NCBI GenBank assembly: GCA_963725255.1
Contig: CAVRXV010000012.1
Location: forward strand, 14,301 to 78,300
Length of the DNA stretch: 64,000 nt
Direction of reading: 5' to 3'
Source of the DNA: an uncultured Gammaproteobacteria bacterium
GTDB lineage: Bacteria; Pseudomonadota; Gammaproteobacteria; JAIEPX01
Shown: one piece after another, positions 30,442 to 63,930 of the stretch
Layout of the letters: each line of letters opens with the position of its first letter
Numbering within the stretch: the stretch's first letter is position 1
Notes under the pieces: generated by a model
Databases searched by the model: none
The model's input: the letters and a program-made list of their open reading frames with translations, nothing else
Told to the model about the DNA's origin: nothing
Made by a program: the position numbers and the translations under genes

Positions 30442-30513
30442 TGCTCCCTAGGGGAATCGAACCCCTGTTTGCGCCGTGAGAGGGCGACGTCCTAACCGCT
30501 AGACGAAGGGAGC
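30442..30513 (-). tRNA. tRNA-Glu, anticodon CUC
   Basis: Hand-folded cloverleaf: acceptor GCTCCCT/AGGGAGC, anticodon loop CTCTCAC, T-arm AGGGG-TTCGATT-CCCCT. Close to the E. coli tRNA-Glu body. No encoded CCA. Confidence 0.85.
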
Positions 30514-33560: not shown

Positions 33561-34763
33561 ATGATACATAGCTTAGTTTCACTATCATTTTGGGGTAATG
33601 TAATTGTTACACTTATCCTAACTCATATCACTGTATTAGGCGTGACAATTTATTTGCATCGCTGTCAGGCACATCGAGCTTTGGATTTGCATCCCGCTTT
33701 ATCACACTTTTTTAGAATGTGGCTGTGGTTATCGACTAGTATGAGTACGCGCGCTTGGGTAGCAATCCACCGTAAACATCACACCTTTGTGGAAACGGAA
33801 GACGATCCACACAGTCCGGTTGTTATGGGATTGCCCAAAGTATTTTTTGGCGGTGTTTTGTTGTATCGTAATGAAAGTAAAGTGAAAGAGACGTTGGAAC
33901 GATTTGGTCGTGGAACGCCCGAAGATTGGCTTGAAAGAAAGCTTTATGCTCCTCGTCCACTTACAGGTGTTATTACGCTATTAATTCTGGAACTGATGAT
34001 ATTTGGTTGGCCTGCGTTGATTATGTGGGTTGTTCAAATGCTTTGGATTCCATTCTGGGCAGCTGGAGTGATCAATGGTATTGGGCACTGGTGGGGCTAC
34101 CGAAATTTTGGAAGTCCTGATGCTTCGACAAATATTGTGCCGTGGGGAATAATTGCTGGTGGAGAAGAGCTACACAATAACCACCATGCCTTTGGTACCT
34201 CAGCTAAACTCTCCGTTAAATGGTATGAGTTTGATATTGGTTGGTTCTATATTCGGTTATTCGAAATCCTAGGATTAGCAAAAGTGCATCGGTCTATACC
34301 CAAAATCATCTCTGATCCTAAAAAGAATGTCGTAGATAGCGATACACTGGGTGCTTTGTTAGGAAATCGCTTTCAAGTACTCGATCAATACTGGCGTAGA
34401 GTTTTTAGACCAGTGATACGTGACCTAAAACAACGGGCTTCTAAACCTCAGCAAGGGCTTTTACGTGGCGCGCGTCGATTATTGAACAAAGACGAAGCAC
34501 AGAGAAATCCTGCAGAACAGGCTCAATTACAAGAGATTTTGGCTCAAGGCTCAACGTTAAAAACAATTTATGATTTGCGTAACGAGCTTCAAGACATTTG
34601 GCATCGTACAACGGCGAACCAGGTAGAGATGTTGGAACGCTTGCAAAATTGGTGCCACGAGGCTGAAGCCACTGGGATTCAGGCTTTGAAAGAATTCGTA
34701 GCGCTCCTGAAGACTTATACCTTGCAACAGCAACGTGTGCGTGTGAAGTCTAACGGACAGTAA
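33561..34763 (+). CDS. membrane fatty-acid (acyl-lipid/acyl-CoA) desaturase
   Basis: Histidine boxes HRCQAH, HRKHH, HNNHH. Confidence 0.85.
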   Translation: MIHSLVSLSFWGNVIVTLILTHITVLGVTIYLHRCQAHRALDLHPALSHFFRMWLWLSTSMSTRAWVAIHRKHHTFVETEDDPHSPVVMGLPKVFFGGVLLYRNESKVKETLERFGRGTPEDWLERKLYAPRPLTGVITLLILELMIFGWPALIMWVVQMLWIPFWAAGVINGIGHWWGYRNFGSPDASTNIVPWGIIAGGEELHNNHHAFGTSAKLSVKWYEFDIGWFYIRLFEILGLAKVHRSIPKIISDPKKNVVDSDTLGALLGNRFQVLDQYWRRVFRPVIRDLKQRASKPQQGLLRGARRLLNKDEAQRNPAEQAQLQEILAQGSTLKTIYDLRNELQDIWHRTTANQVEMLERLQNWCHEAEATGIQALKEFVALLKTYTLQQQRVRVKSNGQ

Positions 34764-59861: not shown

Positions 59862-59863
59862 AC

Positions 59864-59948
59864 AGCATCTCCCGGTTAAGGATTTTGTATGTTTTAGTCA
59901 CTCAATGCCCTCTATTAATTGTTGTTGATTTTTAAACCGTGAGATGCT
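59864..59948. repeat. family-2 MITE-like element (14-nt imperfect terminal inverted repeats)
   Basis: agcatctcccggtt (59864-59877) versus the rc of aaccgtgagatgct (59935-59948), 13/14 match. Starts 3 nt after the spoT stop. Confidence 0.75.
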
Positions 59949-60032: not shown

Positions 60033-61052
60033 CTATAGAATACACACTTCCGGGGTTAATTCTATTGAGAATTTCTCTTTGACATCTGTTTGAATTGCCT
60101 TCGCTAAATTACAAATATCGTCACCCGAACCATGATCATAATTAATAATAACCAGCGCTTGATTTTCATGAACGCCAACACGACCCAAACGTTTTCCGCG
60201 CCATCCACATTGCTCGATTAACCAAGCTGCGGGAATTTTTTTCATATTGTTTTTTTCAGGATAAAATTTAATATCTGGAAATTTTTTGAGTAGTGACTCG
60301 AAAAGTTCTTGAGTAATAATGGGGTTTTTGAAAAAGCTACCTGCATTGGGTAATTGAGATGGATCTGGTAATTTACTTCGGCGAATGTTGATTACGGCTT
60401 CACTGATAGTTTTAATAGACGGTGTTGTGACACCCATTTCTTTAAGCACATCACGAATTTGACCGTAATCCAAATGAAATAGGGGTTTTTTATTGAGACG
60501 TAATGTCACATCGGTAATGCAAAATTGATGGGCACATTCTGATTTGAATATACTCAAACGATACCCAAAATCACAATCCGCATGATCAAATCGAGTTGTT
60601 TTTCCCGACTTGAGATCAAAGGCTGTTAGCTCTACAAATACTGATTCAAATTCTACGCCGTACGCTCCGATATTTTGAATGGGTGCTGCGCCTACAGTTC
60701 CAGGAATTAACGAAAGATTTTCTATTCCAGCATATTCATGGGCGATGCAAAACTGCACTAACTCGTGCCAATTTTCTCCGGCACCTACCTTTAACCAAAT
60801 ATGATCCGATGACTCTTTTACTATCTCTATGCCTTGAATCCCGTTGAAAAGTATGAGGCCTGAAAAATCTTGTTGGAAAAGAGTATTACTTCCTGCTCCT
60901 AAGATGAGTAATGGATTATCCTGCCACATCTGGGTTTCTCGCAATGCCGTGAGATCGTTGATGTGCACGATTGGAGCTGCATAGCGGGCCTTAGCATCGG
61001 TGGCAAACGTGTGATGGTCTCTTAGTGGGACATTATTTTCGATAGTGGGCAT
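60033..61052 (-). CDS. murB: UDP-N-acetylenolpyruvoylglucosamine reductase
   Basis: LILGAGSNTLF, GIENLSLIPGTVGAAPIQNIGAYG, GSFFKNP. Confidence 0.95.
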   Translation of the reverse strand: MPTIENNVPLRDHHTFATDAKARYAAPIVHINDLTALRETQMWQDNPLLILGAGSNTLFQQDFSGLILFNGIQGIEIVKESSDHIWLKVGAGENWHELVQFCIAHEYAGIENLSLIPGTVGAAPIQNIGAYGVEFESVFVELTAFDLKSGKTTRFDHADCDFGYRLSIFKSECAHQFCITDVTLRLNKKPLFHLDYGQIRDVLKEMGVTTPSIKTISEAVINIRRSKLPDPSQLPNAGSFFKNPIITQELFESLLKKFPDIKFYPEKNNMKKIPAAWLIEQCGWRGKRLGRVGVHENQALVIINYDHGSGDDICNLAKAIQTDVKEKFSIELTPEVCIL

Positions 61053-61112
61053 ATTAGTCGCTAATCCAAGTCCAGGAAACAGCTATTATCATCAAATGGT
61101 CTGAGTTTTACA

Positions 61113-61150
61113 AGCATCTCACGGCTAGGGATTTTGAATGCTTTGGTCAT
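61113..61150 (+). repeat. family-2 repeat, solo end
   Basis: agcatctcacggctagggattttgaatgctttggtcat aligns with agcatctcccggttaaggattttgtatgttttagtcac at 59864. Confidence 0.7.
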
Positions 61151-61211: not shown

Positions 61212-61475
61212 GTGGAACGAGAAAGTAGATCAGCAAAAAAACGTGAGGTGGAGGCACTTCAAAAATTAGCATTGTCAATTGCAAAGCTCTCTGAAAAACA
61301 GATTGAGCGACTCAACTTGCCAGAAGAATTATATACTGCAGTATTAACATACAAAAAATTGAACTCCAATGGCGCTTTACGAAGACAAGCACAATATTTA
61401 GGTGTCTTAATGCGAGAAGCGGATCCTGATTTAATTCAGGCTCTTATGAAACAATTACAGAATTTTAAAAAATGA
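61212..61475 (+). CDS. short DUF615/YjgA-like protein (87 aa)
   Basis: SAKKREVEALQKLALSIAKLSEKQIERLNLPEELYTAV...GALRRQAQYLGVLMRE resembles the central part of YjgA. GTG start after GAGAGGAG. ATGA overlap with rlmL. Confidence 0.55.
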   Translation: MERESRSAKKREVEALQKLALSIAKLSEKQIERLNLPEELYTAVLTYKKLNSNGALRRQAQYLGVLMREADPDLIQALMKQLQNFKK

Positions 61476-62674
61476 ACTTTTCAAACTCACTTTTCGTTAC
61501 TTGCCCCAAAGGCATCGAAGGTTTATTACTCGAAGAAATAACTCAATTAGGGGCTACTTCCTGTAAGGAAACAGTAGGTGGCGTATTTTGTGAAGTATCA
61601 CTTGAAAACATGTATCAAATATGTATGTGGTCACGATTAGCCAATCGTGTATATCTGCCCCTCATTAAGGGCCCTGTATATAACACACAAGACTGTTATG
61701 ATTTATGTTCACGATATGATTGGTCTAAACTTTTTAAATTAGACAGCACATTGATGATTAGCTTTTCAGGTCATTCAGATTTTATTCGAAATACCGTTTT
61801 TGGTGCACAGTTAATTAAAGACGCTATCGTTGATAACTTAAGAAAAACATTACAACGTCGTTGTGATATTGATACAAAAAATCCTGACTGTCGTGTGCAT
61901 GCGCGATTGCGTCATGGCGTGCTGTCTGTGTATTATGATTTAAGTGGGCACAGCCTTCATCAACGAGGGTATCGCAAAAAAGGTGGCGAAGCACCAATCA
62001 AAGAAAATCTTGCGTGTGCATTATTAATGCGAGCAGGTTGGCCTGCAATGTCAAAAAATTGCCAACCACTCATTGATCCTGTATGTGGCTCAGGCACATT
62101 TTTAATTGAAGCAGCTATGATCGCAACTGATAAAGCGCCTGGACTGGATCGTTTTGATTATGGTTTTATCAATTGGCAAGGGCACGATTCAGAATTATGG
62201 AAAAAGCTACAAAAAGAAGCGCTCCTTAGACATGAGCGAGCGATGGAAGAGCCAATGTCTCTTTTTATTGGATTTGATAAAGATCAAGACGTCTTAAAAA
62301 TTGCCGAGCGAAATATTCACGCTGCAGGATTTTCAGGCATGATCCAACTTCAACATAAATCGCTCCATGAATTTGAATTACCAGCAGAATGTAAAGGAAA
62401 AACAGGATTGATTATTGCAAATCCACCTTACGGAGAAAGATTAGAAGAATCCGCAGATCTCATTCCACTCTATCAGGAATTAGGAGTAGCGCTCAGTCGA
62501 CATGCGCTTGATTGGAAAGCCGCAATTTTTACTTCAGATCCACTGCTTGCCCGATCAATAGGTTTACGTTCACATAAAAGTTATTCATTTTTAAATGGAA
62601 CAATTCCTTGCAAACTCTATTTGTTCGATTTAAATAAAGATAATCGACTGAAAGATAATGGCGTCGCGTCTTGA
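61472..62674 (+). CDS. rlmL: 23S rRNA m2G2445 methyltransferase domain (RlmL half only); the ORF ends inside a family-3 repeat
   Basis: THUMP-like N-terminus, DPVCGSGTFLIEAA, NPPYGERL. 400 aa versus about 700 for the fused E. coli RlmKL. The stop TGA at 62672-62674 lies in GGCGTCGCGTCTTGA. Confidence 0.85.
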   Translation: MNFSNSLFVTCPKGIEGLLLEEITQLGATSCKETVGGVFCEVSLENMYQICMWSRLANRVYLPLIKGPVYNTQDCYDLCSRYDWSKLFKLDSTLMISFSGHSDFIRNTVFGAQLIKDAIVDNLRKTLQRRCDIDTKNPDCRVHARLRHGVLSVYYDLSGHSLHQRGYRKKGGEAPIKENLACALLMRAGWPAMSKNCQPLIDPVCGSGTFLIEAAMIATDKAPGLDRFDYGFINWQGHDSELWKKLQKEALLRHERAMEEPMSLFIGFDKDQDVLKIAERNIHAAGFSGMIQLQHKSLHEFELPAECKGKTGLIIANPPYGERLEESADLIPLYQELGVALSRHALDWKAAIFTSDPLLARSIGLRSHKSYSFLNGTIPCKLYLFDLNKDNRLKDNGVAS

Positions 62675-62866
62675 TAACGGCGTCGCGTCTTGAGTTGTGA
62701 TAGGTTTTGTCTTTTTGATGAAATTACTTCGTAAAAAAATCATGGTTTTCATAATCTCAAAATGAAATTTAGCTATTTAAATAGTCACAATTTTTACCAA
62801 TATAATTATTTTCTATTTAATTTTTATACCGATTTTCCCAAACGTCCCACAACTCAAGCTACGGGT
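62660..62866. mobile_element. family-3 MITE (~190 bp, imperfect terminal inverted repeats) preceded by a 15-nt duplicate of its own tip
   Basis: GGCGTCGCGTCTTGA occurs at 62660-62674 and again at 62679-62693. The left end is GGCGTCGCGTCTTGAGTTGTGATAGGTTTTG. The right end cccaaacgtcccacaactcaagctacggg (to 62866) is its imperfect inverse. Confidence 0.75.
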
Positions 62867-62876
62867 ATTTTTTTCA

Positions 62877-63401
62877 TATCCAAACATTGATTTATTTGAA
62901 CGTTTTGCAGATCCGACGGATTATGAGGCAATCTATGAAATTGAAAAAAAGACAAATGATCGATTACGTGACAGCAATGGTGAGATTAAATTAGTCTCTC
63001 CTGAACAAAAAGTCACTGGTCCTGGTAGCTCCTACATCATGGCAGTTATTACGCATTTGAAACCTGAGGGTAGTCGTTTTAGTGATGGATCCCATTGAGC
63101 TTCATATGCGAGTCCTGAAAGAGAAACTTAATGCACAGTTACATGATATTACAGGTCAACAAAAAAATATGCTGGCGTCTATGATCTAAATGATTACACG
63201 CAATCGAAACGTTTTGCAAACCAATTAAGAAGCAAAGACGTTTCCGGTATAACTTACAGCAGCGTAAGATGCGAAAATCATGGTGATTATGCAGCAATAT
63301 TTCATCTTAACACCTTATCAAATTGCCAAGAAGATCATCACTTTTATTATTCCTGGAATGGCAAAGAGCTAGTTTCAATGTTAGACCTACCACTTTCGTA
63401 A
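62877..63401 (+). pseudogene. RES-domain toxin, N-terminally cut, internally deleted and frameshifted
   Basis: ...ERFADPTDYEAIYEIEKKTNDRLRDSNGEIKLVSPEQKVTGPGSSYIMAVITHLKPEGSRFSDGS then stop. Later DYTQSKRFANQLRSKDVSGITYSSVRCENHGDYAAIFHLN...HHFYYSWNG in another frame. No upstream antitoxin gene. Confidence 0.65.
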
Positions 63402-63444: not shown

Positions 63445-63620
63445 ATGGAATTCGAATAGCACGAAACAAAAGCTAGGATAAATGCGAAAAAACATGGTGT
63501 GACCTTTGAAGAGGCGATCACCTGCTTGTGTCTTATACAATAAGAGAGAAAGCGATACGCTTAATTTCAGCTAGATTGGCAACGAAGCAGGAGGTGAAAG
63601 ATTATGAAAAAGGCATATGA
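63445..63620 (+). pseudogene. BrnT-like toxin remnant (TGG->TAG nonsense plus internal deletion)
   Basis: MEFE*HETKARINAKKHGVTFEEAI..., then in another frame LYTIREKAIRLISARLATKQEVKDYEKGI*. Confidence 0.6.
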
Positions 63621-63930
63621 TTTGAAAAAGCTTAAGGTGAAACGTCGTGGCGTTTTATCAGCACTGCAAGCCGAAGAAACGTCTACAAATAAAGTGCGTA
63701 TTACGATCTCGCTGGATAAGGATATCATTGATTATTTTAAATCTGAGGCCAAGCATCCGGGTGCATTTCCATATCAGACACAAATTAATCATGCGCTACG
63801 ACAGTTAATCGAAAAAAGGCATGGGTCAGGTCATGAGGATATTGAAGTGCTAAAATCAGAGTTATTGCATGATGTTACTTTTATCAGCGAATTAGCCAAA
63901 ATGGTGAGTCGAAAACACACTAGAAAATAG
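63604..63930 (+). CDS. brnA: BrnA-like antitoxin (apparently intact)
   Basis: KVRITISLDKDIIDYFKSEAKHPGAFPYQTQINHALRQLI matches the remembered BrnA pattern (RxTxRLDxDVxxWFK...GYQTxINxxLR). Confidence 0.7.
   Translation: MKKAYDLKKLKVKRRGVLSALQAEETSTNKVRITISLDKDIIDYFKSEAKHPGAFPYQTQINHALRQLIEKRHGSGHEDIEVLKSELLHDVTFISELAKMVSRKHTRK

Follow-up and report, generated by a model that had tools for sequence, protein, structure and literature searches.

The rlmL gene in a 64-kb stretch of gammaproteobacterial DNA, hereafter the window, ends in a short sequence that recurs elsewhere in the same stretch, where it closes a second reading frame. This raises the question of what the repeated sequence is, whether it has moved, and how it comes to lie at the ends of genes. 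The sequence is the tip of a small, previously undescribed repeat of roughly 200 bp that represents an ordinary kind of mobile-element relic. It probably constitutes a lineage-restricted, nonautonomous family resembling MITEs (miniature transposable elements with inverted repeats), whose deletion derivatives arise from its own palindromic structure. Open reading frames (ORFs) that abut the tip terminate in it, since TGA occurs in two of its inward frames. The label “MITE” describes the structure and is not meant to name a mechanism.

The repeat family and its copies

The repeat is recognized by the 21-mer CACAACTCAAGACGCGACGCC, which occurs exactly three times in the window (25235-25255(+), 27935-27955(+), and 62679-62699(-)), where no occurrence is expected by chance. 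No further site is found in the window at up to three mismatches, and 100 shuffled windows contain no match, so that the repeat reported in an earlier note on this DNA is real. The window harbors three loci of the element in its 64 kb. These loci and the genes that adjoin them are the following:

61472-62674, plus strand: rlmL (RlmL-only, 400 aa), with its last codons (K)DNGVAS and the stop TGA taken from the left end of the element
62654-62672, plus strand: first unit of a 19-nt tandem duplication (GATAAT + GGCGTCGCGTCTT), consisting of the left junction and the outer 13 nt of the tip
62673-62858, plus strand: near-full-length copy (profile E=4e-56), ortholog of L001 11186-11407
62859-63380, plus strand: RES-toxin pseudogene, starting at about codon 15 where it joins the element's truncated right end
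27863-27955, plus strand: 5′-truncated copy comprising the right part of the element (profile E=2e-10), ortholog of L005 9499-9645
27934-28107, minus strand: conserved 57-aa gene, with its last six codons ASRLEL and the stop taken from the tip in frame 2
25171-25255, plus strand: 85-bp internally deleted copy, in the intergenic region that separates a 1172-aa orphan gene from a DUF4143 ATPase gene

The relatives used for comparison were found by protein searches, which also assign the window to a gammaproteobacterial lineage that is uncultured. Among public genomes, the nearest is the metagenome-assembled genome (MAG) GCA_019748175.1 (RlmL 95% and IspA 89% identical), which was sampled over ~70 kb (L001, L005, L016-L018), and the inspected sequence of the window genome and this MAG together amounts to ~134 kb. 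The more distant relative GCA_029777855.1 (RlmL about 80% and IspA 86% identical) was sampled over ~50 kb (L002, L003, L007, L009). Close strains occur in the Logan/SRA runs SRR27422804/811/829, SRR22105554, SRR22105549, ERR11523662, and SRR15686344, and such strains were compared via Logan metagenome contigs (L004, L012-L015). The lineage carries ankyrin, U-box, and WipA-like genes, which suggest a host-associated lifestyle like that of Legionella or Coxiella, and it is probably intracellular.

The copy behind rlmL starts with a left extension GATAAC (62673-62678), which is followed by the left inverted repeat (62679-62709). An interior rich in A+T comes next and then a right subterminal region. 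At its right end, only CACAACTCAAG (62848-62858) and ~45 nt of subterminal similarity remain, and the outer 10 nt are deleted. The sequence from 62859 onward belongs to a RES toxin gene that is truncated at its 5′ end. The two-ended element of ~190 bp proposed earlier for 62679-62866 is therefore to be redrawn as a truncated, nonintact copy of 186 bp that spans 62673/62679-62858. The 15-nt tip is present twice at the left side of this copy, at 62660-62674 and 62679-62693 with TAAC in between, as had been reported and as is read directly from the sequence. The doubling is a 19-nt tandem duplication of GATAATGGCGTCGCGTCTT (62654-62672) followed by GATAACGGCGTCGCGTCTT (62673-62691), identical at 18 of 19 positions and missing at the orthologous site of the relatives (L001, L015). 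A 23/25-nt match between the right junction (62855-62879) and an internal murB segment (60223-60247) was considered as templated filler. It was rejected as coincidental, because it involves a T7 run and because 62855-62879 reads in frame as the RES N terminus (LRVFFSYP vs WRIIPSVYP).

The other two window copies are shorter. The one at 27.9 kb has a perfect 22-nt tip (27934-27955) with its outer end toward the 57-aa gene. It aligns over ~80-93 nt, namely at 27876-27954 with the element profile and at 27863-27952 with a single full copy as query, and is a 5′-truncated copy of about 80-93 bp instead of the solo end at 27903-27955 that had been described. The 85-bp copy consists of 9 nt of the left tip (GGCGTCACG, 8/9 match) joined to ~75 nt from the right part, the tip of which is perfect, in agreement with the short version with a 9-nt inverted tip noted before. 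No ORF ends in this copy.

The anatomy of the complete unit is seen in the MAG, which has two full copies. One (L001 11186-11407, 216 bp, both ends present) lies after rlmL and is orthologous to the window copy; the other (L001 17447-17659, 207 bp) lies at an unrelated, nonorthologous site, and both of its tips (L001 17453-17659) match at 21/22 positions. The full unit thus measures 207-216 bp. The three near-full copies (the two MAG copies and window 62673-62858) share 81% mean column identity from end to end. The terminal inverted repeats are ~30 nt long (GGCGTCGCGTCTTGAGTTGTGAKAGGTTTTG), with a perfect tip of 21-22 nt and 94% complementarity over ~30 nt. The left end reads GAKAAY + GGCGTCGCGTCTTGAGTTGTGAKAGGTTTTG, the right end is the inverted tip, and the interior is conserved and AT-rich. 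The predicted fold of a full copy is a hairpin whose stem measures 30 bp (z = -7.1).

Read inward, the tip is the G+C-rich sequence GGCGTCGCGTCTTGAGTTGTGA, on which the reported TGA in two of the three frames is readily confirmed. The element was also said to lack coding capacity, and this holds: in six-frame translation, the only frame that is open in all three near-full copies is a 25-codon outward reading, MK[TS]M..KP[IL]TT[QK]DATP, which has no homolog among 5.8 billion proteins. No Rfam covariance match is obtained in 62500-63000 even at E<=1 (the sole match at gathering score in the window is a tRNA at 30442-30513), and among the promoter and terminator sites scored in 62400-63000, none lies inside the element. 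In a check by eye for an IHF site, only one of the three full copies fits WATCAANNNNTTR.

Four truncated copies complete the set in the MAG. They are L001 12284-12350 (the right part on the minus strand, without its outer 11 nt), L001 15069-15086 (a tip alone, preceded by GAGAAC), L005 9499-9645 (ortholog of the 27.9-kb copy), and L005 11502-11544 (right part), giving six MAG loci in ~70 kb. The repeat is thus present beyond the window sites, and L001 12284-12350, L001 15069-15086, and L005 11502-11544 are among the nonorthologous loci of this closest relative. At least seven independent loci are present in the ~134 kb of both genomes when orthologs are counted once. The copies cluster in variable regions in both the window (three loci) and the MAG (six loci), and no copy lies in a further 28 kb of MAG contig or, by profile search, in the ~50 kb of the more distant relative.

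Outside the lineage, the exact 21-mer has no match in 185,579 GTDB species-representative genomes or in JGI metagenomes. The degenerate tip GGCGYCGCRTCTTGAGWTGT has one relevant match in the same representative genomes, a relic site in GCA_029777855.1; two other matches, in G+C-rich Actinomycetota and Bryobacterales MAGs, lie under long ORFs and were taken as chance. The inner inverted-repeat pattern gave one chance match without the outer tip in JGI metagenomes, and a blastn search of PLSDB plasmids with a full copy gave nothing beyond chance matches that are short and AT-rich. By these searches, the family appears to be restricted to the window genome, the MAG, and close strains.

Genes that end in the tip

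Both window genes that had been said to stop in the tip do so, as confirmed by the sequence and the list of ORFs. The rlmL gene, read in frame 1 of the tip as GVAS*, ends ...KDNGVAS* with its stop at 62672-62674, and the 57-aa ORF, read in frame 2, ends ...ITASRLEL* with its stop at 27934-27936. A third case comes from the MAG, in which a 1281-aa ankyrin protein ends ASRFEL*, again in frame 2. Two frames are thereby used by three independent genes, with ...GVAS* as the outcome of frame 1 and ...ASR(L/F)EL* as that of frame 2.

In relatives without the element, RlmL ends NRLSLAEKG* (L002) or NRLKESDAVPY* (L012). RlmL-only proteins of 380-400 aa are the norm in the clade, and their conserved domain ends ...CKLYLFDL. 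The alleles differ in the last four to seven residues only (KDNGVAS from the element vs SLAEKG in L002 and ESDAVPY in L012). The earlier note spoke of new C termini, which is right insofar as the stop and the last codons derive from the element, but they amount to just four to seven residues past the conserved domain. A functional effect on RlmL is unlikely, since the changes lie beyond the conserved domains.

The 57-aa ORF probably represents a true gene, as three lineages conserve its N-terminal 36 codons. Compared to L007, these codons show 10 synonymous and 5 nonsynonymous changes. The ASRLEL* end of the ORF is identical in the MAG and the Logan strains. The protein has no Pfam or NCBIfam match.

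The remaining loci are intergenic, with one located 12 nt past a stop and two between gene starts. Targeting to gene ends is not inferred, because three of about seven loci is within the expectation from selection against disruptive insertions. When the tip is brought into the last codons of a gene by insertion or rearrangement, the ORF ends within five to seven codons. If only near-terminal or intergenic positions are tolerated, an association with gene ends would result without any targeting. For annotators, this means that a few element-derived codons are to be expected at some gene ends of this lineage.

Putative mobility, strain variation, and alternative explanations

Strains differ at and around the element. 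The interval from rlmL to the convergent ABC-2 transporter operon measures 0-7.7 kb among strains whose flanks are 95-99.5% identical. In L012, it is 0 kb, as rlmL and ABC2 abut, and all that persists is GCGACGCT, which may be an 8-nt remnant of the right tip. The interval is 1.1 kb in L015 and 7.7 kb in L001, and in L002 it holds a different 486-aa gene. At the rlmL site, L002 and L012 have no recognizable element, L015 has a 37-bp palindrome, and L001 and the window have the full element; this insertion polymorphism is seen without a clean empty/filled pair having identical flanks.

The flanks of L015 are 99.0-99.5% identical to those of L001, yet the full element is replaced by the 37-bp palindrome, in which a single base is flanked by 18 nt from either tip (GGCGTCGCGTCTTGAGTT-G-AATTCAAGACGCGACGCC). 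This palindrome is located between the convergent genes rlmL and wipA, folds with -33.9 kcal/mol (z = -7.9), and is followed by U-rich tracts on both strands. The neighboring wipA-like phosphatase allele of L015 is 89.6% identical to that of L001 within flanks of 99%, which points to a recent recombinational replacement of this allele.

A deletion in the window fused the element's right end, behind ...CTCAAG, with the RES gene at about codon 15 and took out the Xre antitoxin together with ~4.2 kb that are present in the MAG, where the Xre-RES pair is intact (L001 15216-16312). The resulting RES pseudogene lacks its first ~15 codons, has a ~90-bp internal gap relative to L001, and contains a premature in-frame stop; a BrnA-type antitoxin gene lies downstream (63604-63930).

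At the other two loci, the contig L004 shows 100% identity to the window over ispA and xseB but lacks the whole 25000-26678 segment (1.7 kb) that holds the 85-bp copy. L004 itself ends inside the 27.9-kb tip, which is typical of assembly breaks at multicopy repeats, and the repeat explains why contigs of this lineage break at the tip sequence. A DUF4143/AAA_14 ATPase gene, apparently broken into three ORFs in the window (25419-26315, 26350-26508, and 26489-26656), is absent from L004. A second variable “effector” slot lies between guaC-like and ispA, where a 1172-aa orphan in the window (21403-24921(-)) faces an unrelated 1281-aa ankyrin protein in the MAG (L005 11520-15365(-)) in the opposite relative orientation. 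Each of the two genes is bordered by a copy of the element. In three strains, rearrangement breakpoints lie inside or within 5 nt of a tip, at several different positions.

Prokaryotic MITEs are defined structurally by a total length below ~500 bp and terminal inverted repeats of about 4-30 bp (PMC10969869), and published examples match the present element in that they are of similar size, have inverted repeats and an AT-rich core, occur in truncated variants, and overlap ORF 3′ ends (PMC10969869, PMC5896051). Of the features that characterize such elements, the family has the short length (<~500 bp), the terminal inverted repeats, the lack of a transposase gene, and the insertion polymorphism; flanking direct repeats, as seen at least in young copies, are missing. 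The proposal of a MITE family accordingly stands in part. A repeat at several loci with long inverted repeats, no coding capacity backed by a homolog, strain variation, and nonorthologous copies in the MAG speaks for it, but no target-site duplication is found at the two-ended copies and no partner transposase among the window ORFs and relatives' loci scanned.

Copies would have been spread, in the past or at present, by an enzyme encoded elsewhere in the genome. No transposase or integrase related to the element is found among the window ORFs scanned (mainly those of nonsyntenic stretches) or in the Pfam listings of the relatives' loci. Two candidates in the window were rejected. In the first, the ORF 56695-57108(+), a 137-aa remnant aligns with the NCBIfam model of the ISCR clade Ia (IS91-like) transposase over its C-terminal 108 positions (E=4.5e-8), but no tip lies nearby; IS91-type elements are not known to have long inverted repeats. 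The second, at 33561-34763, for which an ISL3 Pfam hit is listed, has the sequence of an ordinary fatty-acid desaturase.

The long palindrome formed by the two arms would promote internal and one-sided deletions once an element is in place. Products of deletion or slippage are seen as the 85-bp form, the right-end-only forms, the tip-only remnants, the 19-nt duplication, and the 37-bp two-tip palindrome. When both tips are cotranscribed, a very stable hairpin may form, which might terminate transcription or be a substrate of RNase III, as is known for MITEs of other bacteria.

Several observations weigh against a MITE-like origin. None of the four two-ended copies shows a target-site duplication at offsets of about -9 to +9, and the best flanking direct repeats have 3-4 nt at inconsistent offsets; direct repeats of MITEs are known to fade with age (PMC10969869). 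An autonomous insertion sequence (IS) with matching ends was not found among the scanned window ORFs and the relatives' loci. The ends are asymmetric, as the GAKAAY extension occurs on the left end only, four of the six MAG loci sit in one 7.7-kb hypervariable island, and the strain-to-strain breakpoints fall within the tips, not exactly at the element ends. Finally, the tip is conserved to a degree that has a probability of P ~5e-4 under uniform decay, by a rough estimate. In both orthologous window/MAG pairs, the 22-nt tip is identical at 22/22 positions, and the remainder of the element reaches an identity of 66-72% when gaps are counted and of 81-88% in ungapped blastn. The more distant relative retains a 17/22 tip relic, preceded by AAC, at the corresponding gene end. 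This pattern points to gene conversion among copies or to a tip-specific function or continued recognition, rather than to passive decay. Better conservation of the inverted repeats is, however, likewise reported for QMITE1 of Coxiella burnetii.

The same observations lead to a more far-reaching possibility, which is unlikely but deserves attention. The 22-24-nt tip may be actively maintained, by an enzyme that is still active or by selection, and may serve as a breakpoint or recombination site for the swapping of effector and toxin-antitoxin (TA) modules. It would agree with the full conservation of the tip next to a diverged interior, with its decay to 17/22 in the one relative lineage that is otherwise without the family, and with the breakpoints in three strains that lie in or near tips. 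Under active maintenance, the C termini of neighboring genes, including ankyrin-type putative effectors, would be rewritten as a by-product, and in Legionella-like bacteria, the secretion signals of such effectors would be C-terminal. The combination of perfectly conserved tips with the breakpoints of a fast-changing effector/TA island is a lead worth following, not an established result.

Three further explanations are compatible with a MITE origin. The first, which has a small chance of being correct, regards the tips as recombination sites (att-/attC-like or the core of a tyrosine/serine recombinase) that bound modules in hypervariable effector/TA islands, with the ~200-bp unit as a site with a variable center. 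The rlmL-ABC2 interval would fit, as copies or tips lie between its modules while its length varies within nearly identical flanks (95-99.5%), and three left-type GAKAAY tips stand in direct orientation at L001 11186, 15063, and 17447, where they bracket groups of modules. The L015 form can be read as two 15-bp inverted arms with a 7-bp spacer, the geometry of a recombinase core site. Tips that are far better conserved than interiors, the missing target-site duplication, and the TA modules (Xre-RES, BrnA-like) in the island, as in chromosomal integron arrays, agree with this as well. However, neither the window ORFs that were scanned nor the Pfam domains listed at the relatives' loci include an integrase or recombinase, single copies also occur at scattered housekeeping loci (the ispA/xseB region), and the modules are multigenic and lie in both orientations. 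The attC cores RYYYAAC/GTTRRRY are not present, the stem is perfectly paired without the bulges that attC needs, and the breakpoints fall at several tip positions (about 10-13 and 18-19) instead of a single crossover point.

It is comparably improbable that the copies, instead of forming a family of small elements, derive from a larger autonomous IS or transposon elsewhere in the genome and represent its solo ends and deletion remnants. Most copies are one-ended or truncated, inverted repeats of 30 nt are of typical IS length, and the inspected part of the two genomes is only ~134 kb. The three copies of 186-216 bp, on the other hand, have the same noncoding interior throughout, and they occupy two independent sites. 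The short unit itself has been duplicated, because its interior is common to these copies from end to end at both sites. Moreover, no transposase fragment adjoins any copy, and the tip is without a match in the 185,579 representative genomes (bar one relic), the JGI metagenomes, and the plasmids.

Least probable is a host-functional palindrome kept by selection, such as a REP-/SPRITE-like terminator, an mRNA-stabilizing hairpin, or a protein-binding site, for which the stable L015 fold with U-rich tracts on both strands between convergent rlmL and wipA (-33.9 kcal/mol, z = -7.9), the 22/22 orthologous tips beside diverging interiors, and the position of copies at or just past gene 3′ ends can be cited, but against which stand one-ended copies that have no pairing partner and fold like shuffled sequences (z = -0.17) yet keep perfect tips, the lack of a scored terminator-like site in the window copy, the lack of an Rfam match even at E<=1, and the 25.2-kb copy between two gene starts.

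Other repeats and insertions in the window were recorded alongside the MITE-like family. Relative to the MAG, a 4.2-kb insertion is present at 53057-57309; it is flanked by ~160-bp direct repeats (53005-53266 and 57190-57351, 98% and 91% identical) and carries three ORFs of ~300 aa without a Pfam match as well as the ISCR/IS91-like remnant (56695-57108). A second small palindromic family occupies 6896-6960 and 8157-8233 with near-perfect units of 65-77 nt, whose arms GGGGTCAGATCT.../...AGATCTGACCCC are 87-95% complementary. The two units flank a 339-aa gene on the minus strand that has no Pfam match. A third short repeat, CAGCATCTCCCGGTTAAGG(ATTTTG), is found at 6870-6890, 57343-57385(-), 59862-59905, and 61110-61132, in positions directly past the spoT stop, upstream of murB/darP, and beside the 6896 palindrome. 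At 1943-2504, 33-nt tandem repeats (2124-2253) lie on one of two overlapping ORFs and encode a lysine/alanine-rich low-complexity protein of histone H1-like composition without a Pfam match.

Comparison with known systems

The 37-bp form of L015 resembles the palindromic remnant that is left by “nearly precise excision” of Tn10, a process documented for this composite transposon in E. coli. The likeness lies in the 18 nt of each inverted repeat that stand back to back, and the process is inferred from the product only. A hairpin-promoted, transposase-independent deletion between long inverted repeats would leave such a product.

With integron attC sites and CALIN arrays, the element shares a palindromic structure, conserved ends, a variable center, and a location between TA-containing modules in a hypervariable region. 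Unlike attC, it has no RYYYAAC/GTTRRRY cores and no unpaired spacer or extrahelical bases, and it is flanked by GAKAAY on the left and by variable sequence on the right. Unlike in integron arrays, IntI is absent from the scanned ORFs and loci listings, orientations are mixed, and single copies lie far from the island. The element also differs from REP/BIME repeats, which are mobilized by RAYT and in which each unit is an imperfect palindrome of 20-40 nt, as a single tip contains no internal hairpin.

Rickettsia palindromic elements (RPE) are small palindromic repeats that alter coding sequences in an obligate-intracellular lineage (PMC10969869). RPE insert in frame inside genes and add internal peptides, whereas the element described here supplies stop codons that terminate ORFs at the extreme 3′ end.

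Correia elements generate a duplication of TA and contain promoters as well as IHF sites. Both Correia and ERIC elements are 100-200 bp long, have inverted repeats of ~25 nt, and are found in intergenic regions and at gene 3′ ends; their cotranscribed hairpins are processed by RNase III or RNase E, which affects mRNA levels (PMC10969869). In contrast to Neisseria Correia and enterobacterial ERIC elements, the repeat described here has no target duplication and no promoter-like site scored, and no sequence similarity to them was seen.

A parallel that had been mentioned is QMITE of Coxiella burnetii. QMITE2 (Wachter et al. 2018, PMC5896051) is a noncoding element of 150-190 bp whose inverted repeats measure 23-29 nt and whose transcript forms a stable hairpin. 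It has direct repeats of 7-11 bp and a GTAG REP that is targeted by IS1111, and QMITE1 is larger (300-400 bp), with an IHF site and basic peptides (PMC5896051). QMITE occurs in full-size, 5′-truncated, and REP-like short forms, and its copies overlap ORF 3′ ends by a few bases (PMC5896051). The present element shares with QMITE an intracellular-type gammaproteobacterial host, inverted repeats, truncated variants, and the overlap with ORF 3′ ends. It differs from QMITE2 in lacking direct repeats of 7-11 bp and from QMITE1 in its length of ~210 bp, and its single tip contains no REP-type palindrome. Whether the two are related had been left open; compared by the tip search of the GTDB representatives and by description, they give no sign of homology. 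Judged by its sequence, the element shows no sign of membership in the QMITE2, Correia, or ERIC families but would work like them, and it adds a further case beside QMITE, ERIC, and RPE of small palindromic repeats that trim or extend ORFs.

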